A stretch of 64,000 bases of DNA from a virus: IMG/VR virus record IMGVR_UViG_3300047281_000098, positions 1 through 64,000 of that record; one strand, given 5' to 3'. The position numbers and the translations under genes are program-made. Each line of letters starts with the position of its first letter. Positions within the stretch are counted from its first letter, which is position 1. The notes below the pieces were generated by a model. It worked only from the letters and a program-made list of their open reading frames with translations, did no database searches and had not been told where the DNA came from. Positions 2,857-52,267 of the stretch are shown here, piece by piece.

Positions 2857-2860
2857 ACGC

Positions 2861-2894: not shown

Positions 2895-2900
2895 CTTAAA

Positions 2901-3224: not shown

Positions 3225-3226
3225 AT

Positions 3227-15159: not shown

Positions 15160-15572
15160 GAATGCTAATTGGAACAAGTTTGGGTGGATGCCTTCAATCT
15201 ATCATGAAGGGTGAAGTGTCCGAGGATGAAGTATTGCTACTAATTACCCGCACAATGTGTACTTCACAAGAGGGATTGATGGCGATTGTGGAAATGTATC
15301 ATAGTAACGGTAATTTCCTGGCATCACGTCCAGATCAATATAAAATGAGTGAGTTTCCTCTTGACGAGGTGAAGGCGCTTGCTATTAGATTGTACCAAGC
15401 TGGTAAAATTCATCAGCCTCGCAACTTTAATGAATATAGTGGGTTCATTCACCCCGGACTCGCACAAGGTGATGGATGCTGGATTGAAGTTAATCCGCTT
15501 GGTATTAATTCAAATCCAATAGTAGTAGATGCCTACGAAAAATATAAGATGCTGGATTCATTGACCAAATGA
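15156..15572 (+). CDS. hypothetical protein
   Basis: tiled ORF, ATGA overlaps. Confidence 0.75.
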   Translation: MRMLIGTSLGGCLQSIMKGEVSEDEVLLLITRTMCTSQEGLMAIVEMYHSNGNFLASRPDQYKMSEFPLDEVKALAIRLYQAGKIHQPRNFNEYSGFIHPGLAQGDGCWIEVNPLGINSNPIVVDAYEKYKMLDSLTK

Positions 15573-15835
15573 CAGAGTACACAATCAATCCACTAACATG
15601 GTTTGCTGGCCGAGAATCAACATTCACTCCTGAACACTTTACAGTGGCAAATGAGCCGCTTACCCCGCAATCTAAACAATGGATCATTGATAAATTGTCT
15701 GGTAGGTATTCTATTGTACAGTATATCGAATCAGAAACTGGGGTAACTATATTCCAGTCATATTCACGACTTTTCGGGCAACCTGCCTTCGAAGATCCTA
15801 AAGAAGCAGTACTTTATGAGCTTAGATGGTCATAA
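15569..15835 (+). CDS. dispersed LRW-family small protein
   Basis: ends FEDPKEAVLYELRWS like the 45-51 kb array. Confidence 0.75.
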   Translation: MTEYTINPLTWFAGRESTFTPEHFTVANEPLTPQSKQWIIDKLSGRYSIVQYIESETGVTIFQSYSRLFGQPAFEDPKEAVLYELRWS

Positions 15836-37531: not shown

Positions 37532-37599
37532 ATTTCGGTTGACATTAAATCATTTTGGTGATATAATAGACTCATAGACAGCGACAAACAGGACTTAAA

Positions 37600-37845
37600 A
37601 TGAACGAACGCATTAAAGAACTCATTAATCTGAGCGGCATTGAAATTCGGAGAAACTATGATGAAAATGGGTCTACCCCTGCTGAATTACAAAAGTTCGC
37701 CGAGTTGATCGTGAGAGCGTGCGCCGATGCCGCAGACATGGCGTATGATGCCCGGTGTAGTGACGTAGGCGACTATGTTGGAGAGCAGCTTGGTTATGGT
37801 GAAGAACACGGCATCACTGCGTGGCGGCACAGAACCGAAGAATGA
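37600..37845 (+). CDS. MNERI-family small protein
   Basis: MNERIKELI...QKFAELIVRAC...TEE. Confidence 0.85.
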   Translation: MNERIKELINLSGIEIRRNYDENGSTPAELQKFAELIVRACADAADMAYDARCSDVGDYVGEQLGYGEEHGITAWRHRTEE

Positions 37846-37924
37846 ATTGTTGGCAAATTTCGGTTGACATTTAATCCGAAATCTGATATAATAGATACTT
37901 AGACAGCAACAAACAGGACTTAAA

Positions 37925-38155
37925 ATGAACATTGGCACTATCATCAAATCGTTTGACTTCCCCGGTAATTTGAACTGCTACATGGTTGGTACAGTGACTA
38001 AAGTAGAAGGTGACTTTATCACTTGTGATACAATCAAGCAAGTATTCGACGGTAAAGCATTGCCCAATGAACAATTCAACAAAGAATTCCGTACAGTAGC
38101 ACAAGGCTCTGGAATGTTTGATGCTACATTTCAACGCATCGTTGAACTGGCATAA
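37925..38155 (+). CDS. hypothetical protein
   Basis: own promoter, AGGA RBS. Confidence 0.75.
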   Translation: MNIGTIIKSFDFPGNLNCYMVGTVTKVEGDFITCDTIKQVFDGKALPNEQFNKEFRTVAQGSGMFDATFQRIVELA

Positions 38156-38156
38156 T

Positions 38157-38270
38157 ATGTTTCGCAAATTACTTTCAATCCAGTGCGTTGAATGTCAGGA
38201 AGTTCGCGTTTGGTTCTGGCAACGACAATGTTCTTTTTGCGATCCTGGCGAAGGCAAAGTATCGACTTGA
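38157..38270 (+). CDS. 37-aa CxxC-CxxC micro-protein (not in ORF track)
   Basis: MFRKLLSIQCVECQEVRVWFWQRQCSFCDPGEGKVST; stop inside next -35. Confidence 0.55.
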   Translation: MFRKLLSIQCVECQEVRVWFWQRQCSFCDPGEGKVST

Positions 38271-38327
38271 CATTAAATCACTTTTCTGCTATAATAGACT
38301 CTTAACTTACTTACTCTGAGAAATAAA

Positions 38328-38408
38328 ATGAATCAAACTACTAAACAATCTTCTACTGGTGGCGTTATCACTTACACAAAGACCGGATTGATTCACAAAC
38401 AAAAATAA
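38328..38408 (+). CDS. 26-aa micro-protein (not in ORF track)
   Basis: only ORF between two promoters: MNQTTKQSSTGGVITYTKTGLIHKQK. Confidence 0.5.
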   Translation: MNQTTKQSSTGGVITYTKTGLIHKQK

Positions 38409-38465
38409 AGATTGACGATAAATCATTTTTCTGATATAATAGATACTTAACAACAAGGAATCAAC

Positions 38466-38639
38466 ATGAGTAAAATGAGCGAATTGGATCTGACTATTAC
38501 TGAATACCTGGAAGAAGGTGATAATGTTTATCGTATTGCGTCAGTGCTGAATGTTCCGCTGGAGCAGGTTCAAGAAATTGAAGCACGATTGTTCTCACTT
38601 GAAAATGTGCCATACGAAACTTATATTCATTACGGTTGA
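38466..38639 (+). CDS. 57-aa HTH-like protein (not in ORF track)
   Basis: AAGGA RBS; MSKMSEL...RIASVLNVPLEQV. Confidence 0.65.
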   Translation: MSKMSELDLTITEYLEEGDNVYRIASVLNVPLEQVQEIEARLFSLENVPYETYIHYG

Positions 38640-38699
38640 CATTAAATCATTTTGGTGATATAATAGATACTTAAACAGCAACACATAGAAAGATATAGC

Positions 38700-38972
38700 A
38701 TGAAAATGTCACTCACTGAAATCAATACTTTGATGGTTCAGGGTAATACTATTGTTTCTGAGTTACCAACTAGTGAGGGCCAAGTCTCTCGTGTTATTTT
38801 TGGCAAGAACTTTCAGGGCCTACGCATCCCAGTATTGCGTAAAGCACCATATATGGGACCAGCAAGCATCATGTGTGGTACTAAACTGTATTTTGTCGTG
38901 AAAACTAGTGACAAGTCTTATGAGATTCACAAATCTAAAACTGCTTACATGCGTTTTCAAAAACAAAAGTAA
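38700..38972 (+). CDS. hypothetical protein
   Basis: own promoter. Confidence 0.75.
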   Translation: MKMSLTEINTLMVQGNTIVSELPTSEGQVSRVIFGKNFQGLRIPVLRKAPYMGPASIMCGTKLYFVVKTSDKSYEIHKSKTAYMRFQKQK

Positions 38973-39052
38973 AATAAAGTGCCCAAAACTTGACATTAAA
39001 TCATTTCGGTGATATAATAGATACTTAAACAGCAACACATAGAAAGTTATAA

Positions 39053-41172: not shown

Positions 41173-42630
41173 ATGAAGAAATGTACGATACATATATCTG
41201 ATGAAGTCAATTGTAAGATTTCAGGATTAGAATTAAGTGAACGCAAGGCACTTATGAAATTATTTGAATATGAAATCCCCGGGGCACGATTCTTGCCTGC
41301 GGTCCGTCTAGGTAGATGGAACGGTAAGATGAGTTATTTTAGCCTTGGGGGAAGTACTTTCGTAAATCTCCTGGAAGAAATTATCCCTGTACTTGATCGT
41401 ATTGGATATGACATTGAGTTGGATGATACCAGAGAGTATCGCACTAACTTTGAGTTCTCTCCTTGTACCGAAGACACATTCAAGCACAAGACTTGGCCCG
41501 TTGGTCATCCAGTCGCTGGTACACCTATCGTATTGCGTGATTATCAAATTGAACTAATCAATAACTTTTTAAGTAACCCAGCGTGTCTACAAGAGATTGC
41601 GACAGGCGCCGGTAAGACAATTATGACTGCGGCACTTAGTTACAATATTGAGCCATATGGACGTAGTATTATCATTGTCCCTAACACCAGCTTAGTAACA
41701 CAGACCGAGAAAGATTATATCAACTTGGGGCTTGACGTAGGTGTATACTATGGTGGACGCAAAGAGATTGGCAAGACTCATACAATTTGTACTTGGCAGA
41801 GTTTGAATGTGATGTTGAAGAATACTAAGTCAGGTGAAGCAGAAGTTAGTATTCAAGACTTCTTGGAAGGTGTTGTATGCGTTATTGTTGATGAAGTTCA
41901 CCAAGCAAAAGCAGACGCCCTGAAAACATTGCTGACTACGGTAATGGCTCAGGTTCCTATTCGTTGGGGATTGACAGGTACTATTCCTAAAGCAAAGATG
42001 GAAAGTCAAGCTCTATTCGTTAGTCTTGGTCCAGTTATCAACAAGCTATCAGCAAGCACTTTACAAGAACAAGGTGTACTGGCAAACTGTCATGTCAATG
42101 TTGTACAATTACAAGATAAAGTTGAGTTCCCTAATTATCAAACAGAGTTAAAGCATCTGCTGGAAGACTCTGTTCGTTTAGATACAGTAGCAGGTCTTAT
42201 CAACAAACTGAAAGAAAGCGGCAATACACTGGTTCTAGTTGACCGTGTGAATGCTGGAACTGAATTAGTCAATCGTATCCCTGATGCTGTGTTTATCAGC
42301 GGTGGTACCAAGGCACAAGTAAGACAAGAAGAATATGACAAAGTGTCCGTGGAGTCTGGATTAGTGCTTGTGGCGACATACGGGGTGGCAGCAGTTGGTA
42401 TTAATATTCCTCGCATTTTCAACGTGGTTCTTATTGAACCCGGTAAGTCATTCGTGCGTGTCATTCAAAGTATTGGTCGAGGCATTCGTAAAGCAGAAGA
42501 TAAGGACCATGTTGAAATTTACGACATTACTTCAAGCTGTAAGTTTGCCAAGCGACATTTGACCAAGCGTAAAGAATTCTATAAAGAGGCCAATTACCCG
42601 TTCTCTATACAGAAACTAAATTACAAATAA
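41173..42630 (+). CDS. uvsW: SF2 DNA helicase UvsW-like
   Basis: LRDYQ, ATGAGKT, DEVH, LTGT, QSIGRGIR. Confidence 0.94.
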   Translation: MKKCTIHISDEVNCKISGLELSERKALMKLFEYEIPGARFLPAVRLGRWNGKMSYFSLGGSTFVNLLEEIIPVLDRIGYDIELDDTREYRTNFEFSPCTEDTFKHKTWPVGHPVAGTPIVLRDYQIELINNFLSNPACLQEIATGAGKTIMTAALSYNIEPYGRSIIIVPNTSLVTQTEKDYINLGLDVGVYYGGRKEIGKTHTICTWQSLNVMLKNTKSGEAEVSIQDFLEGVVCVIVDEVHQAKADALKTLLTTVMAQVPIRWGLTGTIPKAKMESQALFVSLGPVINKLSASTLQEQGVLANCHVNVVQLQDKVEFPNYQTELKHLLEDSVRLDTVAGLINKLKESGNTLVLVDRVNAGTELVNRIPDAVFISGGTKAQVRQEEYDKVSVESGLVLVATYGVAAVGINIPRIFNVVLIEPGKSFVRVIQSIGRGIRKAEDKDHVEIYDITSSCKFAKRHLTKRKEFYKEANYPFSIQKLNYK

Positions 42631-42683
42631 AGCTTGACATTCCCACAGATATAGACTATAATACATTAACTGAAAGACATCCC

Positions 42684-43184
42684 GTGCGTATATTAACCCT
42701 TGACAACACCTTCTATGATTTAGAAACTCTGCCCGAAGAGATTGATGATTTGCGATTCGCAATCCTAGATAATAGCAATCCACTTAATGTAGACTATCAT
42801 TACATTCCGCTGATCTTTCTTGAATCATTTAACTCGCCGGCACTTGTTTTGAAGATTGGTAAGCATACGATTAAAATGCCAGTTGATTGGCAGATTGTAA
42901 TCGGTGAGAAAGAACACGGTGATCTGGAGACATTACCACTGACAAGTATTAATGATCGTGGATTCAATGCGTTTGAATTCAATCCACTATCATCATTCAG
43001 TCCATCATTTCTTCCCATTGAAATCGTTGATATCTACAATGATGTTACTTGGTTCGCCCCACGACTGAAGAACGGTCAATTTCTGTGTGTACCGATTGAA
43101 GATGGATTGAAACCCAAGTGTGTTTACTTTGTTAAAGAAGTAAGCCGTAATTGTGAAATTGTAGACTACTCCCAAGCTTTTTAA
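42684..43184 (+). CDS. conserved hypothetical protein
   Basis: GTG start after TTGACA-17 nt-TATAAT (42634-42662). Confidence 0.78.
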   Translation: MRILTLDNTFYDLETLPEEIDDLRFAILDNSNPLNVDYHYIPLIFLESFNSPALVLKIGKHTIKMPVDWQIVIGEKEHGDLETLPLTSINDRGFNAFEFNPLSSFSPSFLPIEIVDIYNDVTWFAPRLKNGQFLCVPIEDGLKPKCVYFVKEVSRNCEIVDYSQAF

Positions 43185-43185
43185 T

Positions 43186-43617
43186 ATGAACGAAACATTT
43201 TTATTCTTTTCTTATGGTATGCTGACTAACAATGATGTTATGCCTCAGGGTGCTGAAAGACTTGGCCCAGCTGCCTTGCCCGGATTCGAATGGGAAATGT
43301 TATGCTATGCCAATGTGTATGACAAGCCCGGCAACATGGTATTGGGTGTACTTTGGGAAATTGATTACGACATCCTGGATGATCTAGATCACCGAGAAGG
43401 GTACCCCTCATTCTACGGACGAGTATATGCGGATATTATCCATGAAGGCATTCCTAAGCAAGCTTGGGTTTATGTCATGACAGAAGATTATCGCAAAATT
43501 CTTCGTGATACGCCACCGTCGGCTTCGTATGTCAGAACTGTTATCGAAGGATTCGCAACAGATGGCATTACCATGCCAAATTTAAATGTAGCTGAACTTG
43601 GCTACGAAGCATACTAG
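43186..43617 (+). CDS. gamma-glutamylcyclotransferase (AIG2-like)
   Basis: FFSYG, GVLWEI, LDHREGYP..Y, AWVYVM, PSASY. Confidence 0.85.
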   Translation: MNETFLFFSYGMLTNNDVMPQGAERLGPAALPGFEWEMLCYANVYDKPGNMVLGVLWEIDYDILDDLDHREGYPSFYGRVYADIIHEGIPKQAWVYVMTEDYRKILRDTPPSASYVRTVIEGFATDGITMPNLNVAELGYEAY

Positions 43618-43618
43618 T

Positions 43619-44227
43619 ATGGCAACCAAAGTAACTAAAGTAACTAAATCTAAAACTCCAGCTGATGAAAAATTCGGAAATCAAGATTTTGATTTATTCG
43701 AATCGCTGGCAGCAATGGATAAAAAAGACTATGGATATCTTGAACGCCTGACTGAAGAACAACAAAAAAAGTTTGTTCCATTTATGATGACTCATTGGAT
43801 GAGCGCGGTATCAGGTAGCGGTGATGTAGCTGGATACTATGTTCGCAGTGTGGATCATTATGCGAATACTCATTTGTTCAATGAAGTAGTACAAAAACAT
43901 CCTAAGCTTCAATGGTTGATGCTGTGCGCTTCAAGTCCTAACTTAGGTAAGCAATTTCACAAATGGATTCCCCACCTTAGTGGTAAAGTAAGTTTGTTAA
44001 AAGAGCCAGCAAAGACTAAAGATGTCAAAGAGTACTTTAATAAGATTTATCCCAAGACAAGCGAAGATGCCATCGATGGCGCAGCTAAAGCGTTTGTATC
44101 CGATCATAAACGCAAGTGTCATTTAGCTGAACTATTCCCTAATTTAAAGCAAGCTGATATCGAAACTCTTAATCAACTTATTACAGATGCCGACATTGCT
44201 CAATATGATAAAGACCGCGGAAACTAA
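43619..44227 (+). CDS. clamp loader small subunit (T4 gp62-like)
   Basis: FVPFMMTHWMS, HPKLQW, QFHKWI. Confidence 0.6.
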   Translation: MATKVTKVTKSKTPADEKFGNQDFDLFESLAAMDKKDYGYLERLTEEQQKKFVPFMMTHWMSAVSGSGDVAGYYVRSVDHYANTHLFNEVVQKHPKLQWLMLCASSPNLGKQFHKWIPHLSGKVSLLKEPAKTKDVKEYFNKIYPKTSEDAIDGAAKAFVSDHKRKCHLAELFPNLKQADIETLNQLITDADIAQYDKDRGN

Positions 44228-44906
44228 TCCAGTAAAATATGAATGTGAATTTTGTAAGAGAGAATTCGCAAAGGAAGCCACGGTATTCAAACATATATGC
44301 CAATACAAACATCGTTGGGTTGAACGCGACAAGAAGGGCAATCGTATTGGATTTCAAGCTTGGCTACAATTCTATACTCGCAACAGCACAAGTAAAAAGA
44401 ATAGGACCGTTGAAGAATTTATCAAAAGTCCGTACTACAACGCATTTGTAAAATTTGGCAATTACTGTGCGGAAATTAATGCGATAAGCGTCAGTAGATT
44501 CATTGATTGGTTACTGAAAGAACAGATAAAAATTGACACCTGGTGTCAAGACAGTGTTTATACAAAGTTTCTGATTGCTTATACCAGAATCGAAGATCCA
44601 ATGGACGCGATTGTTCGCAGCATTGAAACAACTATTAAATTAGCTGAAACAGAATCAATTCAATCACATGATTGTCTACGATATGGAAATGTAAATCGAA
44701 TTTGTTATGCCATTACCGCAGGGAAGATAAGTCCATGGTTGTTGTATCAAAGCGACAGCGGAACAACATTTCTGTCTAATCTAACTTCTGATAATGTTTC
44801 AATGATTCTTGATTATATCAACCCAGAGCAATGGGCTATTAAGTTCAAAAGATACCCAGAAATTGCTGCTGAAGTCAAAGCATTGTTACGAGCAGGTGGC
44901 TATTGA
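44205..44906 (+). CDS. C2H2-type zinc-finger hypothetical protein
   Basis: YECEFCKREF....FKHIC; start uncertain (44187 or 44205). Confidence 0.75.
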   Translation: MIKTAETNPVKYECEFCKREFAKEATVFKHICQYKHRWVERDKKGNRIGFQAWLQFYTRNSTSKKNRTVEEFIKSPYYNAFVKFGNYCAEINAISVSRFIDWLLKEQIKIDTWCQDSVYTKFLIAYTRIEDPMDAIVRSIETTIKLAETESIQSHDCLRYGNVNRICYAITAGKISPWLLYQSDSGTTFLSNLTSDNVSMILDYINPEQWAIKFKRYPEIAAEVKALLRAGGY

Positions 44907-44931
44907 CATTTAATCCATAATCTGTTATAAT
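44903..44931 (+). promoter_or_regulatory. early promoter heading the LRW array (leaderless)
   Basis: TTGACA-17 nt-TATAAT, ATG 6 nt downstream. Confidence 0.87.
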
Positions 44932-44937
44932 ACAGAT

Positions 44938-45273
44938 ATGAAGACATTATACGACCTTGAAAGTACGGGCTTACATAGTTTTAAGCGAGGTGAACTAACA
45001 TTGTTCACTGCTTATAGGCAGTCTGGCAAAAGTATGCTTAATCAATTGTACGGGACAATTATGACAAAAGGAAACTTTGAGATAACAGATCAGGCCCCAG
45101 TAGATGGAGAGACTTGGTATACTGTTGCGTGTGTCAGTGTCGTATGCGAATGGATGCGTGAGCAACCCAAAGAATTGTGGCACGAACACATTGACCTTAG
45201 GTGGATTCATTATTCAAACAAGTTTGACATACATGAAAAACTCTATACCGTGTTAGCACTGCGATGGAGCTAG
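44938..45273 (+). CDS. LRW-family protein with P-loop-like N-terminal fragment
   Basis: FKRGELTLFTAYRQSGKS ... LALRWS. Confidence 0.8.
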   Translation: MKTLYDLESTGLHSFKRGELTLFTAYRQSGKSMLNQLYGTIMTKGNFEITDQAPVDGETWYTVACVSVVCEWMREQPKELWHEHIDLRWIHYSNKFDIHEKLYTVLALRWS

Positions 45274-45500
45274 AACTAAGTGAAGGTGGAATACACGGTG
45301 CCAGGTATTATATAGTCAGACCCTGGCCATGGGACTCGCACATCACCTGGCTCACAATGGAAGCATGGGCTATTGGAACATTCGGACCAGACGGTGGCTC
45401 TATTTGGAATAATCTTAACTCACGCTGGTATATGAATAATAGCAAATTCTGGTTTCGCACTGAAGCGGATCGTACTTTTTTTATATTAAGATGGCAATGA
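45264..45500 (+). CDS. LRW-family protein
   Basis: ends FRTEADRTFFILRWQ. Confidence 0.8.
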   Translation: MELELSEGGIHGARYYIVRPWPWDSHITWLTMEAWAIGTFGPDGGSIWNNLNSRWYMNNSKFWFRTEADRTFFILRWQ

Positions 45501-45697
45501 GAATTCAAAAAGTGTCCAGCAGTGACAACATACATGCTCCTGGCGAATATATGTATAAAATTCATGACCACTGTAAAGATAGCGACACCCTGAGGGGGTG
45601 GAGAGACGAAATCAAGTTGGATTGTCTCATTTACTCCAATGTTGCTTATTTCAATACCGAAACAGATGCTATGTTTTTCATACTGAGATGGCAATGA
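45497..45697 (+). CDS. LRW-family protein
   Basis: ends FNTETDAMFFILRWQ. Confidence 0.8.
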   Translation: MRIQKVSSSDNIHAPGEYMYKIHDHCKDSDTLRGWRDEIKLDCLIYSNVAYFNTETDAMFFILRWQ

Positions 45698-45858
45698 CTA
45701 CCAATTACAGTTGGCAGTACAATGGTGCTGCCCCGTTCATAGATATCATGCAATGGTGCGTTGATACTTTTGAAAATGCTAACTGGTCTGCCAACTGGGA
45801 AACTTTTAGTTTCAATAATGAAAAAGATTATGTTTGGTTTGTATTGAGGTGGCAATGA
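45694..45858 (+). CDS. LRW-family protein
   Basis: WCVDTF...FNNEKDYVWFVLRWQ. Confidence 0.8.
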   Translation: MTTNYSWQYNGAAPFIDIMQWCVDTFENANWSANWETFSFNNEKDYVWFVLRWQ

Positions 45859-46097
45859 GAAAACTAATTCCAAATAATATAACTGTTACTGAACAGATTG
45901 CGATCCATCGTCAGTTTTTTAATATGGTTGGAAAATGGCGTCGTAGTCAGCAGCCTGTTTTAAGAAAGGATGAATACTTGCAGTGTTTGGAAGAGGACAG
46001 CGGTGTTCGGTGCCAATATAGTAGCGGTGGTCAGTTGACAGGATTCGAAGTTATTGATGAAAAGACTTATACCTGGTTTGTGTTGAAATGGACATGA
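45855..46097 (+). CDS. LRW-family protein
   Basis: ends DEKTYTWFVLKWT. Confidence 0.8.
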   Translation: MRKLIPNNITVTEQIAIHRQFFNMVGKWRRSQQPVLRKDEYLQCLEEDSGVRCQYSSGGQLTGFEVIDEKTYTWFVLKWT

Positions 46098-46330
46098 ACG
46101 ATACTACAAGTTGGATTACCTTTGGTAAAGACCATTATCATTTAAACAGGGTAATGGAGCAGTGGTGTCACGAACATATCGGGCAAGGTGGATGGGCACA
46201 CGAAACACCAAAGGCTTGGGGATGTATGATGGGCGATAAGATTTGGGTAATGCATAGTATGTTTGGTAACACAACTTTTTGCTTTAAAGAAGAAAAAGAC
46301 TTTATGTGGTTTAAGTTGAGGTGGGCATGA
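46094..46330 (+). CDS. LRW-family protein
   Basis: WCHEHIG...FKEEKDFMWFKLRWA. Confidence 0.8.
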   Translation: MNDTTSWITFGKDHYHLNRVMEQWCHEHIGQGGWAHETPKAWGCMMGDKIWVMHSMFGNTTFCFKEEKDFMWFKLRWA

Positions 46331-46554
46331 GTTTTATAACAGTTTCGCGTAATTTGAACGCTGATGAGTTAAGAGATTGGTTAGTCACCAATGTTGGAAA
46401 AGAGATCGGCAAGGGAGCTTATGCTAGAAAATGTGGCGACGGATGGGACTTGGATACGACCATTGGTTACAGGGAAATTCCCGCTGTCTTAAAATGGGGC
46501 ATAACCATTGATGACGAAGCATTAGCAGTATTTTTTAAATTGAGGTGGGCATGA
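46327..46554 (+). CDS. LRW-family protein
   Basis: WLVTNVG...DDEALAVFFKLRWA. Confidence 0.8.
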   Translation: MSFITVSRNLNADELRDWLVTNVGKEIGKGAYARKCGDGWDLDTTIGYREIPAVLKWGITIDDEALAVFFKLRWA

Positions 46555-46865
46555 ATAATAAAACAATTGAAGATTTTGTAATCCGTTACGGTGCCAAAGT
46601 AAATTACGAACAAAGACGCGACTATAATACTTATAATACTATGGGTAGGGCAATGGATTACTATTCATTGGATTACTATGGCAATGGTAACAGCATAGTA
46701 GGCATTGAACTACCTTTAAAGGCATTTGAGCACTTAGTCAACTCGGATAATCAAGCTGATGTAGACTATCAAGCTGGTAAGGAAGAGGCTCGCATTCGTG
46801 CTCGGTATCCATCAGTAGCAGAAGCGTATGCTCAATATAAAATGTTACTTGAACTATGCAGATAA
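46551..46865 (+). CDS. hypothetical protein (non-LRW array member)
   Basis: ends YPSVAEAYAQYKMLLELCR. Confidence 0.78.
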   Translation: MNNKTIEDFVIRYGAKVNYEQRRDYNTYNTMGRAMDYYSLDYYGNGNSIVGIELPLKAFEHLVNSDNQADVDYQAGKEEARIRARYPSVAEAYAQYKMLLELCR

Positions 46866-47251
46866 TTGAATATATTAAAGACAAGTATCTAACTTGGCGT
46901 ACTGGCCAAGATAAGCAAACACGCGATTGGAATAAGTGGTTGTATGAAACTGTTCTATTTCGTGCTGACACGATTGAAAATATGTTTGTGAACTTTAAAT
47001 ACATACTACCAGTGTCCGTAGAGATATTTGATCTTGAAGAACCGTTTGGATGGGCACTGGGCGATGACATTCGACAGTATATGTATCCTAACCGAGCATT
47101 AGGTGACTGTGCGGTTCATTACTTTGCGCGTGGGTTTCGCCATCAATGGGATGGTCGCTTTCACCTTAATGAAATTAGCGGTGGTGATCAAGTGTTTATA
47201 GCAACTAACAACAGCAAGGATGCTATGATGATAGCATTGAAGTATTCATGA
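46856..47251 (+). CDS. LRW-related protein
   Basis: ends KDAMMIALKYS. Confidence 0.78.
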   Translation: MQIIEYIKDKYLTWRTGQDKQTRDWNKWLYETVLFRADTIENMFVNFKYILPVSVEIFDLEEPFGWALGDDIRQYMYPNRALGDCAVHYFARGFRHQWDGRFHLNEISGGDQVFIATNNSKDAMMIALKYS

Positions 47252-47580
47252 ACGATTTACAAATAGAAATACACAAGCGCACTATGAAGCTGCTATCTAC
47301 TGTAATGGCACAATCTATTATAGGGGTGCAACCTATGCCAAATACTGGTATCTTCAATGTAAGGTTTAGTAAATCTAAATATAAATTCAACCGTGCTAAA
47401 TGGTATGTAGCAGTGTATAACTACAACTATTATTACGAAGTAGTTGAATGGTGTGCTGAACAGTTCGGCCCACATCCCGAGCAACCAGATGCTTGGAGTC
47501 GTTGGGTACACAAATACGAAGATACGATTCACTTCCGTGATGAAAAAGATTATATTTGGTTTACATTGAGGTGGTCATGA
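47248..47580 (+). CDS. LRW-family protein with major-capsid-like GVQPM fragment
   Basis: MAQSIIGVQPMPNTGIF ... WCAEQFG ... FRDEKDYIWFTLRWS. Confidence 0.82.
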   Translation: MNDLQIEIHKRTMKLLSTVMAQSIIGVQPMPNTGIFNVRFSKSKYKFNRAKWYVAVYNYNYYYEVVEWCAEQFGPHPEQPDAWSRWVHKYEDTIHFRDEKDYIWFTLRWS

Positions 47581-47765
47581 AATTACTGGAAGACTACTCA
47601 GTATCATTGAGCGCAGACAGATGGATCAAAATAAAAGAACAATTAACAAAAGTTGAATCTAATTCATTGGTGTCTATTACTTGGACAGGTCCGTTTGAAA
47701 GAACCAGAATATTACGATTTAAATCTGAGAATGATGCATTGATATTTGTATTGAGGTGGAGCTAA
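47577..47765 (+). CDS. LRW-family protein
   Basis: ends FKSENDALIFVLRWS. Confidence 0.8.
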   Translation: MKLLEDYSVSLSADRWIKIKEQLTKVESNSLVSITWTGPFERTRILRFKSENDALIFVLRWS

Positions 47766-48016
47766 TGATTACATATAAAGTACTGTGGACCGAGTTACCA
47801 CATATTAAAGTACCGGTATTACACACGGTAATGTATGCTCACAGTACAGATGGAGTAGACGCAAAATATCAACGAAGTTATAAGGATCATTTAGTAGATG
47901 AGTGGTTAAAAGCAAACTGTCGGGCGCCTTACTATCACTCTACCTATCATACAGAAAAGTTTATACAATTTGAAGATGATGAAGATGCTATGTGGTTTTC
48001 TTTGAGGTGGTCATGA
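47765..48016 (+). CDS. LRW-family protein
   Basis: ends FEDDEDAMWFSLRWS. Confidence 0.8.
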   Translation: MITYKVLWTELPHIKVPVLHTVMYAHSTDGVDAKYQRSYKDHLVDEWLKANCRAPYYHSTYHTEKFIQFEDDEDAMWFSLRWS

Positions 48017-48273
48017 TATATAACGAAATAGAACAAGACATTATAAACAGAGCAGGCAAGGAACTATCCAGTGAAATTGACTTCCATGTACTTGCTGATT
48101 TATACTCACAAGACGGCTGGACTGAAGTTAATTTGCCGAGACAGCCCAGAGAAACAGTAGTTGAGATTCTATCCTGGTGTGCGAGTCATAATATTAAGTG
48201 CTATGGCAGAGGGCAACGATGGGTGTTTGAGAAGAAGCAAGACGCCTTGTTCTTTAGTTTGAGGTGGGCATGA
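48013..48273 (+). CDS. LRW-family protein with major-capsid-like helix
   Basis: EIEQDII...KELSSEIDFHVLADL ... FEKKQDALFFSLRWA. Confidence 0.82.
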   Translation: MIYNEIEQDIINRAGKELSSEIDFHVLADLYSQDGWTEVNLPRQPRETVVEILSWCASHNIKCYGRGQRWVFEKKQDALFFSLRWA

Positions 48274-48449
48274 TTGTTACATTACCATATGATCCAGCAT
48301 GGAAAGCATTAGAATGGGCTAAAGACCATTGTCCTGATTATGTTACTAATGAAGTACACCCCCACAAAGCATGGATTCGCCCGATTCAGATTGACTACTT
48401 CTTTTCGTCCGAGCGAGATGCTGTATTTTTTAGTTTGAGGTGGGTATGA
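48270..48449 (+). CDS. LRW-family protein
   Basis: ends FSSERDAVFFSLRWV. Confidence 0.8.
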   Translation: MIVTLPYDPAWKALEWAKDHCPDYVTNEVHPHKAWIRPIQIDYFFSSERDAVFFSLRWV

Positions 48450-48691
48450 AATACTTTAGCAGTAGCGGAGGCAACAATAAACCATACTTTGCCCATCGTA
48501 TTAAATTACCCAAAGTGGTTAGTGAAGCATATGACTGGTGCTTAGAGTACCCAGATCAAGATAGACCCTTTAGAAGATTCCATGTAGAATGGGATCATTA
48601 TCCAGAGGGAAAATACGGGCATAAAGGTTATGAAATTATTCAATTTGAGTGGGAAGAAGCCGCCATTATGTTTACATTGAGGTGGTTATGA
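48446..48691 (+). CDS. LRW-family protein
   Basis: ends FEWEEAAIMFTLRWL. Confidence 0.8.
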   Translation: MKYFSSSGGNNKPYFAHRIKLPKVVSEAYDWCLEYPDQDRPFRRFHVEWDHYPEGKYGHKGYEIIQFEWEEAAIMFTLRWL

Positions 48692-48957
48692 GAGTAGAGT
48701 TTAGACAAGGTGTGCCTGACGGATGTGCCCGGTGGCTACGTGAGAATGTTGGACTGGGTAATATTGAGGAAGACAGCAACAACAAGAGAACACGGCAGGG
48801 GATGATTGACATGCCTGAGTATGCTTGGTTCTATGAGCGGGTAGCAATTATACCCGACGATGCCTTGAGTCTGCTTTACGAGTCCATTCATTATGTTCCT
48901 ACTATCACAGTTAAAGATCCCGAGTTGGCTACATTTTTTAGTTTGAGGTGGTTATAA
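48688..48957 (+). CDS. LRW-family protein
   Basis: ends KDPELATFFSLRWL. Confidence 0.8.
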   Translation: MRVEFRQGVPDGCARWLRENVGLGNIEEDSNNKRTRQGMIDMPEYAWFYERVAIIPDDALSLLYESIHYVPTITVKDPELATFFSLRWL

Positions 48958-49172
48958 TGGTAGACTGGCTTAATGACAGCTCTGACGAAGTTTATTGCGC
49001 TGATTCAGAAGCGTTTGAAAACTTTTTTCATGACTTCTGCCTAAATGGAAAAGCCAAAGGAGCAGAATGGGGTCCTGACTATTGGGAACAACATGGCATT
49101 AAGGTTGTGAACAGTAGAGTAGAATATGATACCCCTGCACATCGCACTATGTTTTTATTGAGGTGGTTATGA
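48957..49172 (+). CDS. LRW-family protein
   Basis: ends RTMFLLRWL. Confidence 0.8.
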   Translation: MVDWLNDSSDEVYCADSEAFENFFHDFCLNGKAKGAEWGPDYWEQHGIKVVNSRVEYDTPAHRTMFLLRWL

Positions 49173-49432
49173 AGAAACCTAAACCAAAGAAGCCAAAAGC
49201 TAAAATACCCAAAGGTGCATTGATAGTTGACTACGGCTTGTATCGTGTAATCCTACCTTATAAACACCCGATTGACTTGTATAATAACAAAGAATTAGAT
49301 ATAATATGTGAATGGTGCGATAGAACATTTCCAAAAGATGATTGGAGATGTAGCAGAAGTAGCTGGCCAGGTCATGTCTACTTTTTAAAAGAAAGCTATC
49401 TGACAATGTTTTTATTGATGTGGGCAAAATAA
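49169..49432 (+). CDS. LRW-family protein
   Basis: WCDRTF...TMFLLMWAK. Confidence 0.78.
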   Translation: MKKPKPKKPKAKIPKGALIVDYGLYRVILPYKHPIDLYNNKELDIICEWCDRTFPKDDWRCSRSSWPGHVYFLKESYLTMFLLMWAK

Positions 49433-49433
49433 T

Positions 49434-49874
49434 ATGGTTCAGCTAACTAGACCTGTACCGCCAAAACCAAGCATGATACCGTGGCCATATAAGTTGCCTC
49501 GCAATAAATTAGAAAGACAAGAAGATATGGCTAAATGGGAAATACATAAACGAGCAGGCAATCTAGTAGAAGCTGCTTGGTGGCACTGGATGCCAGGGGT
49601 AACAATTAATGTTAAATGGCCTGTTGGTTTAGTATTTGTGCTTGATGAAAAAGATCGTCGGTGGGATTGGACCATGGGAACAACCAAGCAATCATTTGAC
49701 TCGGCGGACCCTAACGACCATTATAGACCTTGGCTTGAAAAGAATGTTGGCAAGCAGGGATGGGATTGGCAATGGGGACTTAGAGATAACAACGCAGCAG
49801 AGAATAGACTTACTATTAAAGTTAGAACTAAACATGCCAAGTGGGCAACAGTCGCCTCACTTCTGTGGGGATAA
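49434..49874 (+). CDS. LRW-related protein
   Basis: WLEKNVGKQGWDW...ASLLWG. Confidence 0.78.
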   Translation: MVQLTRPVPPKPSMIPWPYKLPRNKLERQEDMAKWEIHKRAGNLVEAAWWHWMPGVTINVKWPVGLVFVLDEKDRRWDWTMGTTKQSFDSADPNDHYRPWLEKNVGKQGWDWQWGLRDNNAAENRLTIKVRTKHAKWATVASLLWG

Positions 49875-49877
49875 GTA

Positions 49878-50099
49878 ATGGATTTTGACTTCAACAAGGA
49901 AAAGCGATTTATCCTTGTCCCTGCTAATCTTGAGTTTTCAAAACTCATGGTCATACTAACTGATATGGACTATTGGAACACACATTACGAAGCACTCAAA
50001 GACTGGTGCGATCTACAACTAGGAACTAATCAAGTTGGGATGACGGTTGAGTTCGACAGTGAGCAGGACCTGATGTTGTTTATATTAAGATGGAGCTAG
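49878..50099 (+). CDS. LRW-family protein
   Basis: ends FDSEQDLMLFILRWS. Confidence 0.8.
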   Translation: MDFDFNKEKRFILVPANLEFSKLMVILTDMDYWNTHYEALKDWCDLQLGTNQVGMTVEFDSEQDLMLFILRWS

Positions 50100-50100
50100 A

Positions 50101-50367
50101 GTGAAACACATATTCAGAAATTTAATTCGCAAAGAGAAATGGACTCTTGTGGAAATTAAGCCGACCAAGGACACAATGTGGTCTTCTGGTGGGGAAGATT
50201 TAAATCGGCAAGACTATATTAAAATGCGGAATTGGTGCGAACAAACTTTTCACAAAGAAGTATTCGCCACTTCATTACAATCAGTACACGGAGTTAGTCC
50301 TGGATTGAAACGATTCATATTCAACAATCCCGCAGATGCCACGATGTTCAGATTGCGTTGGGAATGA
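50101..50367 (+). CDS. LRW-family protein
   Basis: WCEQTF...FNNPADATMFRLRWE. Confidence 0.8.
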   Translation: MKHIFRNLIRKEKWTLVEIKPTKDTMWSSGGEDLNRQDYIKMRNWCEQTFHKEVFATSLQSVHGVSPGLKRFIFNNPADATMFRLRWE

Positions 50368-50597
50368 CTAAGACCTCTGTTACAGTTTACGGTGCGTATG
50401 CTCCAATGCTAAAATGGCTAAGTGACAACATAGGCGCGGAGCTTCACAGTATGCCAATTGTTTTTTGGTACGGAAAAGGTTGGTTCATGAAACGCACATC
50501 TGATATTAGAGAAGAAAGAGTTGGACTCAGGGCTGGCTGGTCAGTTGATTTTGATGATGATCAGAATGCGACATGGTTCGCATTAATATGGGGATAA
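50364..50597 (+). CDS. LRW-family protein
   Basis: WLSDNIG...FDDDQNATWFALIWG. Confidence 0.8.
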   Translation: MTKTSVTVYGAYAPMLKWLSDNIGAELHSMPIVFWYGKGWFMKRTSDIREERVGLRAGWSVDFDDDQNATWFALIWG

Positions 50598-50598
50598 T

Positions 50599-50874
50599 AT
50601 GGCAATTTTAAATACACACGCACATGGATACTTTAGAGCAGTTGAATACGAGACAATAGAAGTAATAGACATGCCTCGCACCTACGGCGCCAAGAAAGTA
50701 TACACGTATGATTGTAGGGCAAAGTCAGAAGATCCAAGCATTATTGTAAAATGGTGCAGAAGAAACTTTGGGCAGCGAGGTGATGGTTGGGACTTTACTT
50801 TTCACTCAGACCGTGTTACAATAGAGATTACAAAAGACGAGTTTAAGACAATGTACGAAATGTGGAAACTATAA
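50599..50874 (+). CDS. LRW-related protein
   Basis: WCRRNFGQRGDGW...MYEMWKL. Confidence 0.78.
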   Translation: MAILNTHAHGYFRAVEYETIEVIDMPRTYGAKKVYTYDCRAKSEDPSIIVKWCRRNFGQRGDGWDFTFHSDRVTIEITKDEFKTMYEMWKL

Positions 50875-51419
50875 TGGCAAATAATGTAATGATAGATTTG
50901 GAAACGCTGGACACAAGTCCATTCTGCGTTATCCTCACGATTGGAGCAGTAGTATTCGACCCTAAGGGCAACGGTATCGTTGACAAGATTGATCTGCGAC
51001 CTTCAATTGAAGAACAACTTGATATGGGCAGAGTTATCAACGATGAAACTGTTAAGTGGTGGGGCAATCAAAGTGAGGCGGCGCAACATGAAGCACTAGG
51101 TGATCATGACCGAATTCCCTTCAAGGAAGCAATGGAGAAACTTCATAAATTCTGTTGGAACAAAGGTAACCCCTGGAGTCACGGCGCAGCGTTTGACATT
51201 GTAGCAGTGGAAACATCTTGGGCCAGCTTTAAGATGCAACCACCATGGGACTTTTACAAAGTACGAGACACACGAACATTGTTTGATGTTACTGGAGTGA
51301 ATCTTAAAGACGGTGGTTATGTGACAACTCACAAGGCTTCCGAAGATGCGGCACGTCAGGCATTCATTGTACAGAAGGCGTATAAGATTCTCATTGCCGC
51401 CGGAGTAACCCCTCCGTGA
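50874..51419 (+). CDS. DEDDh 3'-5' exonuclease (DexA-like)
   Basis: MIDLETL, SHGAAFD, RDTRT, HKASEDA; start at 50874. Confidence 0.9.
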   Translation: MANNVMIDLETLDTSPFCVILTIGAVVFDPKGNGIVDKIDLRPSIEEQLDMGRVINDETVKWWGNQSEAAQHEALGDHDRIPFKEAMEKLHKFCWNKGNPWSHGAAFDIVAVETSWASFKMQPPWDFYKVRDTRTLFDVTGVNLKDGGYVTTHKASEDAARQAFIVQKAYKILIAAGVTPP

Positions 51420-51423
51420 AATT

Positions 51424-51678
51424 ATGAAGATTAATCCTAAACTTAAACCAGACGAGTTAGCTCTTTTATCAGTAGATTCTGCTAGGAGATATTTTCTATT
51501 AAACGTTAATACCACTAAACTAGCACCGGACGAAGATTCTATACAGCATGAGTTTGCACTGTGGTTAGAAACAGAATACTCCTGTAAAATGTGGCGCCCG
51601 TATAAAGGAGCAACAAGACGGTTGAAATTTAATGATATGGCTAAATTAGTTTGGTTTAAACTCAAATATGAAATTTAA
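51424..51678 (+). CDS. LRW-related protein
   Basis: ends FNDMAKLVWFKLKYEI. Confidence 0.7.
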   Translation: MKINPKLKPDELALLSVDSARRYFLLNVNTTKLAPDEDSIQHEFALWLETEYSCKMWRPYKGATRRLKFNDMAKLVWFKLKYEI

Positions 51679-52267
51679 CGGTGACGTTGACATTGATCTA
51701 GGAAACAGGGACTTACTGTTGGAACACATTAAGCATATTCCTGCGGCTATGCGTAATATAACACCTATAAGAAAGCACTCCACTGGAATTCATATCACTG
51801 ATATTCCATATGATCCTATCAATAATATCGCGTCAATTGACTATGCCGCTGCTGAATCGCGCGGGTATTTTAAGCTGGACTTGCTGAATGTTCATGTATA
51901 TGCTAATGTACGTGATGAGTCACATTTAGTAGAATTAATGCGCGAGCCAGATTGGAATCTACTGAATGACAGAGAATTTGTAAGTACGCTTATACATTTA
52001 GGTAATCATTATCAAAGTATACAGCGTATGATTGAGCCTATCAATAGTATTCCCAGACTGGCTATGTTTCTGGCAATGATCAGACCTGCAAAAAAGCATC
52101 TGATAGGCTTGCCATGGAGTGAGGTTGCGAAGACTATTTGGGAGAAAGATAGTGACGGCGGGTATAGCTTTAAGAGAAGTCACGCAGTTGCGTATTCACA
52201 GTTAGTCACTGTACATATGAATCTGTTACAGGAAATGCCTGTTACGAAATTCTTTTCACAAGAGTAA
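51668..52267 (+). CDS. miniature DNA polymerase III alpha (C-family) catalytic core
   Basis: GDVDID, KHSTGI, GYFKLDLLN, LAMIRP, YSFKRSHAVAYS in only 199 aa. Confidence 0.85.
   Translation: MKFNGDVDIDLGNRDLLLEHIKHIPAAMRNITPIRKHSTGIHITDIPYDPINNIASIDYAAAESRGYFKLDLLNVHVYANVRDESHLVELMREPDWNLLNDREFVSTLIHLGNHYQSIQRMIEPINSIPRLAMFLAMIRPAKKHLIGLPWSEVAKTIWEKDSDGGYSFKRSHAVAYSQLVTVHMNLLQEMPVTKFFSQE

Follow-up and report, generated by a model that had tools for sequence, protein, structure and literature searches.

A tandem array of paralogous small genes with a repeated coding joint in an uncultured jumbo phage

Organization of the array

The window analysed here (the first 64,000 nt of the 105-kb IMG/VR record IMGVR_UViG_3300047281_000098) belongs to an uncultured freshwater jumbo phage, the host of which is probably a betaproteobacterium; a tmRNA gene of betaproteobacterial type is situated at 2847-3225. 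Between two core genes of this phage lies an island, bordered on the left by a gene of 239 aa (44187..44906; no Pfam family, more than 600 homologues on viral contigs) and on the right by a gene of 199 aa (51668..52267). The chain in between (44938-51678) consists of 24 small ORFs of 53-146 aa and one gene for a 185-aa Rv2179c-like exonuclease, all of them, like the border genes, on the plus strand. The array is headed by a perfect sigma-70-type promoter at 44903..44931 on the same strand (TTGACA-17-(TG)TATAAT, 12 of 12 positions matched, with the extended TG). The consensus promoter of the original prediction is thereby confirmed as to its match, but it is not unique, since the window contains 16 perfect sites in total, every one of them on the plus strand (0.07 expected). 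No further site above a 10/12 match was found on the plus strand inside the array, and among 86 relatives the promoter is kept at the same place only in L090.

Alignment confirmed that the pattern W(C/L)xxxFG ... F-x-F-x-x-E-x-D-A-x-x-F-x-L-R-W-x-stop is common to the array ORFs, as had been proposed for about 23 coupled small genes with a shared LRW end. A profile built from relatives only, from which this window and the close relative L090 were excluded (the leave-out profile), recovers 21 of the 24 small ORFs at E<0.003, and a single small-protein family accounts for 21 to 23 of them. The family carries no Pfam or PHROG name, but its metagenome matches comprise 1,118 representative clusters at E<=1e-3. 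Array members are 13-31% identical to one another.

Member 1 (44938..45273, 111 aa) ends in LRWS, encoded with CTG CGA TGG, and member 2 (45264..45500, 78 aa) in LRWQ, with TTA AGA TGG CAA TGA; both are supported by alignment and by the leave-out profile. At the N-terminus of member 1 there is a Walker-A-like stretch, the likeness of which to a P-loop is weak and ambiguous. The leave-out profile also matches member 3 (45491..45697, 68 aa, LRWQ, CTG AGA), which is absent from L090, member 4 (45694..45858, 54 aa, with TTGAGGTGG at 45844 and an ATGA joint), member 5 (45855..46097, 80 aa, LKWT), member 6 (46088..46330, 80 aa, motif at 46316), and member 7 (46327..46554, 75 aa, motif at 46540). Then follow a non-member ORF of 104 aa (46551..46865, ending LELCR), which is matched by neither profile and has orthologues in L090 and L029, and a divergent member (46856..47251, 131 aa, ending ALKYS), which is missed by the leave-out profile and matched only by the profile that includes it.

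The best family score is that of member 10 (47248..47580, 110 aa, motif at 47566). Member 11 (47577..47765, 62 aa, motif at 47751, TAATG joint) is missing in L173 and in run X9 and stands at another place in L090, where the position of member 12 (47765..48016, 83 aa, motif at 48002) differs as well. Members 13 (48013..48273, 86 aa, motif at 48259), 14 (48270..48449, 59 aa, motif at 48435), 15 (48446..48691, 81 aa, motif at 48677), and 16 (48688..48957, 89 aa, motif at 48943, TAATG joint) are again matched by the leave-out profile, and are followed by member 17 (48957..49172, 71 aa, motif at 49158) and by member 18 (49169..49432, 87 aa, ending LMWAK), the latter matched likewise.

A second divergent member (49434..49874, 146 aa, ending LLWG) is missed by the leave-out profile and assigned by its AF2 core. 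The remaining members are matched by that profile: member 20 (49878..50099, 73 aa, LRWS, TTA AGA TGG AGC TAG), after whose stop the next start is a GTG one base further, member 21 (50101..50367, 88 aa, LRWE, TTG CGT), member 22 (50364..50597, 77 aa, LIWG), member 23 (50599..50874, 91 aa, ending YEMWKL), whose orthogroup is the last of the array in many relatives, and the last member (51424..51678, 84 aa, ending KLKYEI), which is left out in contigs from the X4 and X9 runs. The gene of the Rv2179c-like 3'-5' exoribonuclease (50862..51419; Pfam PF16473, E=1e-32) is situated between these last two and is absent where the islands of relatives are smallest. Outside the array, one solitary distant member was found (15569..15835, plus strand, ending ELRWS with CTT AGA TGG TCA TAA), from which 74 nt lead to the following gene, with an AAGGAG of its own.

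Codon choice at the joints

All eleven predicted exact junctions proved to be copies of TTGAGGTGG, exclusively on the plus strand between 45844 and 49166, whereas shuffled versions of the window contain 0.46 copies on average and never more than 2; a search of the entire 105-kb record revealed none beyond these array copies. Each copy reads TTG AGG TGG (Leu-Arg-Trp) and is followed by one sense codon and a stop overlapping the next ATG. In nine of the eleven joints the overlap is ATGA, formed by a last codon NNA and the stop TGA. The other two, TAATG, are given as those at 48943 and 47566, although the feature annotation places the latter at 47751.

Concerning the arginine codon of the LRW site, AGG is used in 11 of 15 cases in this window, compared with 5.1% of the arginine codons over 41 genes outside the array and 10.5% within the bodies of the array genes. 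Across the 86 relatives, AGG is found in 112 of 173 genes where the following start overlaps or abuts the stop, but only in 4 of 42 without such a start (p=3e-11), and the difference persists if one vote is given per orthogroup and coupling state (49/68 coupled vs 1/17 uncoupled, p=6.5e-7). The third base of the leucine codon is G in 100 of 116 sites with AGG vs 26 of 74 with AGA, and the last codon ends in A in 167 of the 210 coupled genes of the relatives. As a control, the conserved Phe three codons upstream is TTT in 78% vs a background of 72%, such that there is no general freezing at the DNA level.

These comparisons strongly support, as far as sequences can, the suggestion that the LRW codons double as the Shine-Dalgarno (SD) site of the downstream gene. 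The original prediction had further read the fixed codons as conservation at the DNA or RNA level, which applies to codon choice but not to the amino-acid motif: The uncoupled solitary copy keeps L-R-W with the non-SD codons CTT AGA, and the three amino acids are conserved for the sake of the protein itself, with only the choice among their codons reflecting an RNA-level constraint.

In the mechanism proposed here, the array genes would be read as a single message from the strong early-type promoter at 44903, and translation would be coupled by the overlap of each stop with the next ATG. Leu-Arg-Trp, written as (T/C)TG AGG TGG, would present GAGGUGG five bases upstream of the start, where 6-7 of its bases could pair with the 16S anti-SD, and the extra codon after Trp would have to end in A to complete ATGA. 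We infer both the actual coupling and the expression from one transcript. A few non-array genes carry AGGAG while most show no obvious SD; together with the betaproteobacterial-type tmRNA, these few make it plausible that the SD route is in use.

Alternatively, L-R-W might merely close the last helix of the protein with GAGGTGG as a by-product, and illegitimate recombination might occur anywhere, only survivors with intact genes being seen. In keeping with this, L and W are nearly invariant, also in uncoupled copies, and both fall into a confidently modelled amphipathic helix; SDs are missing from most other genes of the phage, and 41 of the 173 coupled joints (about a quarter) have AGA, which gives no SD, so that the motif is not strictly needed for coupling. 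A constraint on the protein leaves unexplained, however, why synonymous choice shifts from about 9% to 65% AGG only with start-stop overlap, within orthogroups too, and why the third base of Leu co-varies with it. Nor would random breakage account for the shared sequence at crossovers and for the block replaced between two joints that are described below, and we regard this explanation as unlikely.

Variation of the island among relatives

Across the 86 relatives, the two core genes stand between 3 nt and 8.3 kb apart, with 0-26 family members in the space between them; in distant relatives, the upstream core gene directly adjoins the downstream one (gap 3-9 nt). The nearest relative, L173, is about 94% identical over 44001-47580 and lacks exactly 47577-47765 and 48957-49172, with joint overlaps of 13 and 21 nt, but otherwise keeps the same cassette order. 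Contigs of metagenome X9, a DNA data set like all the runs found, show the same two deletion joints, that of member 17 lying inside the shared 13-mer TTGAGGTGGTTAT. The 13-21 nt shared at these joints look too short for assembly alone to have created the joins. Compared with L173, the three cassettes at 45858-46554, a block opened by member 5 and closed by member 7, are 16-22% diverged, whereas the stretch from 41173 to 45858 is 0.1-2.7% diverged, and both transitions are situated within about 40 nt of a joint. In L090, whose flanks show around 80% DNA identity, 26 members exist and the shared cassettes occur in a different order.

In related islands, 38% of indel breakpoints fall within 15 nt of a family stop vs 4.7% at random, the pairs compared not being phylogenetically independent. 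Exact repeats between joints are as long as 19 nt, with at least 15 nt in 11 pairs, whereas none of the control pairs from gene bodies reaches 12 nt, and exactly where the crossovers occur the joints have 13-38 nt in common. Relatives and independent metagenomes thus support the gain, loss, replacement, and reordering of whole cassettes, with the crossovers located in the joint. This is the shuffling that the original prediction had placed at the junction; none of the counter-evidence that it had named for the sequences was encountered, although the nearest relative does keep the same order apart from its two deletions.

As interpreted here, the island would be a hyperplastic one, filled by lineage-specific tandem expansion of one small-protein family. 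SD codons, an A-ending last codon, and ATGA together give every gene the same last 13-20 nt, and this direct repeat would provide the homology for recombination, both unequal and between strains. Whole cassettes could in this way be deleted, duplicated, exchanged for others, or moved to another place in the order, and whatever gene came next would still have a ribosome-binding site and an in-register start. That recombination, rather than selection alone, places the breakpoints at the joints is our inference. Selection for intact genes would also leave breakpoints at gene ends, whatever the mechanism. Taken as a whole, tandem expansion of one family, coupled joints with a double coding role, and recombination of cassettes through these joints form the reading that we consider probable.

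Two further explanations concern the origin of the joint itself. A plain tandem-duplication accordion under gene conversion, in which identical joints are young DNA and not selected, would be in line with tandem paralogues of variable copy number and with the similarity of the adjacent members 2 and 3. It is nevertheless very unlikely given the low identity among members, the restriction of repeats of at least 12 nt to the joints, the unfrozen Phe codon beside the motif, and the same joint design even where the core genes of relatives have just 55-65% identity.

The joint might also be primarily a recombination signal, i.e., an oriented hotspot similar to Chi (in E. coli, GCTGGTGG) or the target of a site-specific phage enzyme, with translation being secondary. 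All motif copies indeed have the same direction and end in GGTGG, and crossovers map to the motif. Their orientation, however, already follows from the co-directional genes, the 105-kb record has no copy of the motif elsewhere, AGG tracks the downstream start in a way not expected of a DNA signal, cassette indels are also found at AGA and AAG joints without the motif, and no recombinase or integrase domain was detected among ten neighbouring proteins scanned, which renders this explanation highly improbable.

Predicted fold and comparison with known systems

Each member would combine a variable N-terminal part with a constant core of around 60 residues, the last helix of which ends in F-x-L-R-W. 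The AF2 model of member 10 reaches a pLDDT above 90 for residues 50-110, and that of the 146-aa member has a C-terminal succession E86-90, H93-104, E125-131, H132-145 at a pLDDT of 66-93 (mean 70); the two models agree in the order of their elements, by which, and not by superposition, they were compared. The models support a beta-alpha-beta-beta-alpha core in the family and agree with the predicted common fold. Neither Foldseek against the PDB (E>=1) nor VIA (Z<=5) gave an informative match for this core.

The closest analogue is the shuffling of modules by PeSLs in the hyperplastic regions of T4-type phages, where cassettes of promoter plus terminator stand between the genes, every gene forms a separate transcription unit, and mini-circles have been shown (Arbiol et al. 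2010, PMC2839356; Comeau et al. 2014, PMC4122927). The term integrase-free cassette array is a fair description of the island, but with this precedent the principle is not new. In both systems, variable small non-essential genes lie between core blocks of a large myovirus, and a short boundary motif with an expression function offers homology for integrase-free insertion, deletion, or replacement of single genes. The repeat of the array, however, is coding (the last four codons) whereas that of PeSLs is intergenic, it would act on expression through translation (SD plus stop/start overlap) inside a single transcript, and shuffling concerns paralogues of a single family throughout, not unrelated ORFans. 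Elsewhere in the window, near-identical perfect promoters at 37539, 37864, 38267, 38636, and 38990 form a classic PeSL-like stretch.

With integron arrays, the island shares small promoterless cassettes in one direction behind a single promoter, and content and order that vary between close relatives; unlike integrons, it has neither an IntI integrase nor attI, its joint does not look folded in the attC manner (by appearance only), its cassettes are mutually homologous, and their movement appears to proceed via general homologous or microhomology recombination. Coupling by stop/start overlap (ATGA) with an SD inside the upstream gene is general in bacterial and phage operons. The ATGA or TAATG overlap, the SD about 5 nt upstream in the preceding coding sequence, and an upstream codon choice bent to it conform to this rule, whereas in the array the SD lies within the codons of a protein motif that is conserved in a multi-copy family. 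The joint consequently recurs 10-20 times in succession, and hundreds of genes of the phage clade have it; it would also serve as a recombination patch.

Functional hints are limited to the early-type promoter and to member 10, in which a decayed piece of the major capsid protein of this same phage occupies approximately residues 14-30. That the array constitutes a library for anti-defence or host interaction is conjecture, and least certain is the notion that its members might be early host-interaction or counter-defence proteins whose variable part gives specificity. Expansions of gene families are known from large DNA viruses, e.g., the K3L amplification of poxviruses and the paralogue arrays of giant viruses and jumbo phages. 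The copies in the present array differ from such accordions in being old and very divergent, not recently amplified, and in having a built-in expression joint; like them, it comprises tandem paralogues, 0 to 26 copies at one locus, and fast sequence divergence, in keeping with an arms race.

Array layout, source phage and protein family

The island between the two core genes at 44187-44906 (239 aa) and 51668-52267 (199 aa) holds 24 small ORFs between 44938 and 51678 and a gene for a Rv2179c-like 3'-5' exoribonuclease (50862-51419; Pfam E=1e-32). The exoribonuclease gene belongs to the variable island and not to the core: it is missing where islands are smallest, and where present it does not keep a fixed place among the family members. 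Concerning the joints, i.e., the places where the end of one array gene overlaps the start of the next, the repeated motif that the original prediction had described at eleven gene junctions is confirmed. TTGAGGTGG occurs 11 times, always on the + strand and between 45844 and 49166 (average in shuffled sequences: 0.46), and no further copy is found anywhere in the 105-kb record. In frame, every copy reads TTG AGG TGG (Leu-Arg-Trp), with a single codon between it and the stop. Nine of the 11 have NNA as this codon and TGA as the stop, such that the resulting A-TG-A contains the next start, and in the remaining two the joint is TAATG; most joints of the window are ATGA, TAATG, or have stop and start within 4 nt of each other. 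The array is headed by a promoter at 44903 that matches the sigma-70-type consensus at 12 of 12 positions and has an extended TG. Perfect promoters number 16 in the window, all on the + strand, with 0.07 expected. Within the array, no + strand site scores better than 10/12, and terminator-like sites are as numerous as in shuffles.

The window is the 64-kb start of a 105-kb IMG/VR viral record with a CheckV completeness of about 30%. The large terminase shares 48-50% identity with its counterparts in jumbo myoviruses (Sinorhizobium phage Phosso and the Pseudomonas PA5oct group), a complete relative with terminal repeats measures 329 kb, and near-identical DNA is present in freshwater and aquatic metagenomes of about 15 studies. 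A permuted tmRNA gene of betaproteobacterial type lies at 2847-3225 (+) (ARAGORN; Rfam RF01850, 95.8 bits vs. a gathering score of 84), its tag peptide being ANDESYALAA according to ARAGORN; this gene is a clue to the host, and one of the perfect promoters is situated at it (2861). Terminase similarity, the size of the complete relative, tmRNA type and metagenome origin together identify the source as an uncultured freshwater jumbo phage, the host of which is probably a betaproteobacterium.

The pattern common to the array ORFs is clear in a multiple alignment. Since a profile built from these ORFs themselves finds them by construction, it was rebuilt from 332 relatives only, with this window and the close relative L090 excluded. 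Of the 24 ORFs, this profile matches 21 (E<0.003), in agreement with the prediction of one shared family. ORF 46551-46865 is not a family member, and 46856-47251 and 49434-49874 are divergent, their membership resting on the motif or the predicted fold only. For ten members, neither Pfam (E<=0.1) nor PHROGs gave a match through the core domain; a PDB sequence profile search likewise yielded nothing, the array had no megablast match among 50,697 phage records, and tblastn of member 47248 (47248-47580) against cultured phages gave none either, even at E<=1. At this sensitivity, no member of the family is detected in cultured phages. Among 1.8 billion cluster representatives, a profile search returned 1,118 clusters at E<=1e-3, nearly all of 55-150 aa and annotated at their source only as "hypothetical protein". 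BFVD matches are uncharacterised proteins of uncultured phages only, and ESM Atlas matches are unnamed viral clusters only, one of them with a 13% share of Gp23.

In an AlphaFold model of member 47248 computed with 150 family sequences, residues 50-110 are predicted at pLDDT above 90 as beta-alpha-beta-beta-alpha, with the conserved Trp-Cys in the first helix and F-x-L-R-W at the end of the last one. The divergent 146-aa member 49434 is predicted to have core elements in matching order (pLDDT 66-93) behind extra N-terminal elements. For these two members, the models thus agree with the common fold that had been proposed, as judged by comparing element lists. The members thus have a small predicted scaffold in common, and most of the differences among them lie in N-terminal extensions and in loops. 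Foldseek against the PDB gave no informative match (best E=1), and an exhaustive VIA search was likewise uninformative, KH-like, ACT-like and other small alpha/beta domains being tied (best Z=5.0).

A solitary, distant and uncoupled member at 15569-15835 (+) ends in ELRWS (CTT AGA TGG TCA TAA) and is followed by a spacer of 74 nt and a gene with its own AAGGAG. It is preceded by an ORF of 138 aa (region 15156-15835 (+)), the last 18 residues of which resemble the end of 46551-46865 (9/18 identical, E=0.002); the two genes may represent an old two-gene module.

Codon choice at the joints

The sequence GAGGUGG can pair with the anti-Shine-Dalgarno (anti-SD) sequence of 16S rRNA through six Watson-Crick pairs and one wobble pair. 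In the joint, GAGGTGG is situated 5 nt upstream of the next ATG. The idea that it acts as an SD was examined through codon choice, the test that is possible on sequence alone. Over 41 genes of the window outside the array, AGG accounts for 5.1% of the Arg codons and TTG for 20% of the Leu codons. The AGG share is 10.5% in array gene bodies, and at the Leu-Arg-Trp site AGG is used in 11 of 15 cases. The relatives provided 86 distinct islands with 215 members ending in L-R-W-x-stop. Among these, AGG is found in 112 of 173 genes when the next start overlaps or abuts the stop, but in only 4 of 42 when it does not (Fisher p=3e-11). The difference persists with one vote per orthogroup and coupling state (49/68 coupled vs. 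1/17 uncoupled; p=6.5e-7), and several orthogroups change between AGG and AGA or CGA according to their coupling state.

The third base of the Leu codon is G in 100 of 116 genes with AGG vs. 26 of 74 with AGA, which extends the pairing to GAGG. In contrast, the conserved Phe three codons upstream is encoded by TTT in 78% of cases vs. 72% in the background, such that there is no general freezing of the DNA. In relatives, 210 of 280 genes ending in W-x are coupled, and 167 of these 210 have an A as the final base of their last codon. As caveats to the SD reading, about a quarter of the coupled joints use AGA, and most other genes of the phage are without a clear SD. Because the AGG and TTG enrichment tracks coupling and the Phe codon is unbiased, the prediction that the Leu-Arg-Trp codons provide the ribosome-binding site of the next gene is largely supported at the level of codon usage: the amino-acid motif would be kept for the protein, and its codons would be chosen for the SD of the neighbour. 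The array has sequence features of a translationally coupled operon, in that stops overlap or abut the following starts, and in that the end of the preceding gene contains an SD-like site at functional spacing to which its codons are adapted. That genes may be coupled through an SD located in the preceding gene is textbook knowledge; the array differs in that its SD is written into the conserved motif of a multi-copy family and repeated along the whole array.

The 239-aa core gene itself ends in GCA GGT GGC TAT TGA (A-G-G-Y; 44889-44906). In relatives without an array, the ATG of the 199-aa gene follows 3-9 nt after ..GCAGG.., and because of this the ancestral joint, too, probably had a purine-rich, SD-like C-terminal coding end. 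In many relatives (L013, L019, L038, L048, L057, L119 and others), the first member, which begins ..RVRIPWKKGD.., starts at the stop of the 239-aa gene (..GGCTAC TAG AGTTCG..), with no ATG, GTG or TTG visible nearby in frame; a frameshift fusion of this member to the core gene is possible.

Probable exchange of cassettes among related islands

The whole-family alignment contained no stretch conserved enough for locating related loci, which were found through the flanking core genes, each with hundreds of homologues. Distant relatives have the two core genes next to each other, 3-9 nt apart; elsewhere up to 8.3 kb lie between them, with 0 to 26 family members. Relatives without an array at this locus possess a few members at other loci. 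Strings of orthogroups reveal that content and order of the cassettes (array genes with their joints) are very different among islands, as the prediction of shuffled units had implied. In L090, where DNA identity to the window is about 80% in the flanks, head and tail of the array are collinear with it, whereas the middle contains shared cassettes in another order, and blastn blocks start and stop at joints.

The nearest relative is L173, a contig that came up in a search with a predicted joined form. Over 44001-47580, its identity to the window is about 94%, and it is collinear with the window apart from two deletions. Member 47577-47765 is missing, with the flanking alignments overlapping by 13 nt, and so is member 48957-49172, with an overlap of 21 nt; at the latter, left-specific sequence is followed by TTGAGGTGGTTAT and then by right-specific sequence. 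Both joints are also present in contigs of the independent metagenome X9, and contigs of two runs pass over a third cassette, 51424-51678. A shared stretch of 13-21 nt looks too short for assembly alone to create such joins. Two further apparent skips in X9 (48720-48816 and 50374-50538) are probably divergent stretches instead of deletions.

Besides losses, the comparison of the window with L173 points to a replacement. The two differ by 0.1-2.7% over 41173-45858, by 16-22% in the three cassettes of 45858-46554, and by 4-6% in the genes thereafter, both transitions lying within about 40 nt of a joint. From this divergence profile, it looks as if the three-cassette block had been replaced by a diverged allele. 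By codon position, the differences between window and L173 amount to 69/61/107 overall and are about equal across positions in two cassettes, a pattern that would indicate weak or diversifying constraint. The near-equal spread concerns two of the three cassettes of 45858-46554, where it suggests diversifying or relaxed selection.

When all pairs of related islands are compared, indels of at least 100 nt have 38% of their ends no more than 15 nt from a family stop codon, compared to 4.7% of random positions. Breakpoints at gene ends are also to be expected from selection that keeps genes intact. In the worked examples, the crossover falls inside ...L-R-W-x-ATGA, joints with AGA included. Exact repeats between joints of the window are up to 19 nt long (11 pairs of at least 15 nt), and gene-body controls never reach 12 nt. 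Given the shared sequence at the crossovers and the block replacement, the view that the joint serves as recombination substrate as well is largely supported by these sequence comparisons. The predicted exchange of cassettes at the joint stands to the same degree, through the L173 deletions with their overlaps and the excess of breakpoints near stop codons.

An integron probably does not account for the array. A Pfam scan of ten neighbouring proteins (helicases, terminase, DnaB and exonuclease among them) revealed no recombinase domain, and the joint as read exhibits no obvious inverted repeat, whereas an attC-type site would be an imperfect one. Among described systems, the PeSLs of T4-type phages come closest. 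There, repeated cassettes of a strong sigma-70-like early promoter and a stem-loop terminator, situated between the small genes of hyperplastic regions, give rise to indels, replacements and mini-circles (PMC2839356, PMC4122927). Equally to PeSLs, the array has an expression signal that is repeated at gene boundaries and would double as recombination homology, with no integrase among the ten proteins scanned, and indels and replacements among relatives end in this repeated motif. The fundamental difference is that the repeat of the array is coding and translational, whereas PeSLs are intergenic promoter-terminator elements; the array possesses a single strong promoter (44903). Of the integrase-free cassette array originally envisaged, the shuffling is largely supported, as a kind of process for which PeSLs are a precedent, whereas the defining feature of PeSLs is absent. 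Taken as a whole, this reading of architecture and mechanism appears to us quite probable. A PeSL-like stretch exists elsewhere in the window, at 37539-39018 (+), with near-identical perfect promoters (TTGACATTAAATCATTTTGGTGATATAAT and variants) every 325-400 nt. Promoters of this near-identical kind are also found at 4085, 5267 and 11612, and most of these promoters are followed by a small ORF of 57-90 aa.

Possible functions and significance

The array is dispensable and turns over fast. The early-type promoter in front of it is shared by this phage and L090, whereas other relatives are without it. That the proteins act early in host interaction or counter-defence is a tentative suggestion only.

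Concerning the N-terminal modules, six of 150 family proteins match PHROG 138 ("major head protein"), among them P0019, whose residues 9-55 align to profile positions 60-106 (E=1.7e-8). This PHROG corresponds to the genuine capsid protein of the phage clade, which it matches at E about 1e-100 in four relatives. Orthologues of member 47248 match capsid residues of about 50-97 (P0019, 1.6e-11; P0046, 8e-11; P0083, 1e-9), such that one family lineage carries a conserved capsid-protein segment fused to the scaffold and kept in otherwise diverged sequences. In the window, the capsid-like fragment occupies 47248-47367, the N-terminus of 47248-47580, and is decayed, with 9 of 17 residues kept around GVQPM (E=0.002); it is better preserved in P0019, P0046, P0083 and L009:15076-15492, and the capsid link appears only through such orthologues. 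The protein set examined includes eight carriers of the motif. With the 24 ORFs as queries, tblastn returned nothing significant from the remainder of the 105-kb record, the capsid gene was not found in this record in searches whose controls also failed, and the N-terminal 55 aa of member 47248 retrieved only their own orthologue in three large relatives.

A second recurrent module is Walker-A-like, G-E-x-x-L-x-S-x-x-R-Q-(S/T)-G-K-S, and is located at 44938-45045 as well as in P0013, P0015, P0029, P0138, P0166 and L095:4448-4834; P0013 has P-Y-Q ahead of it, a feature of large terminases as well. The best matches of this P-loop-like module in 44938, P0013, P0015, P0166 and others are ambiguous and not significant (DnaB-like helicase, pairwise E=0.004; terminase PHROG, E=0.012; primase/helicase, E=0.015), and the module cannot be assigned to terminase, DnaB or primase.

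Capsid proteins are known to trigger bacterial defences, namely CapRel and, by way of the Gol peptide of T4 gp23, Lit (PMC9712102), so by analogy it is conceivable that the capsid segment acts as a decoy or competitor. On a broader reading, which we regard as unlikely, the array would be a self-wiring display library with a constant mini-scaffold and interchangeable N-terminal pieces, some copied from the most conserved proteins of the phage; the capsid segment of the 47248 lineage would be a piece of this kind. Decoy proteins would be made early and compete for the host immune sensors that recognise the phage's own proteins, and the dual-coded joint, Leu-Arg-Trp and SD in one, would let a population add, drop and reshuffle decoys without a dedicated recombinase. 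The member with the capsid piece gives a concrete handle on the question of whether phages use self-derived decoys against capsid-sensing defences.

The family as such, with more than 1,000 clusters and a compact fold without informative match, is flagged here as a large unnamed phage protein family. Its copy number of 0 to 26 at one locus is as expected for arms-race genes, and several hundred natural joints, with and without coupling, constitute a built-in control. The idea of regulatory repeats as joints, known from PeSLs, would be extended from transcription signals to a translation signal within coding sequence. A few terminal codons appear to be selected at three levels, namely protein fold, ribosome binding of the neighbour, and recombination homology, and through such a dual-coded joint an ordinary gene family may become a set of plug-and-play cassettes.
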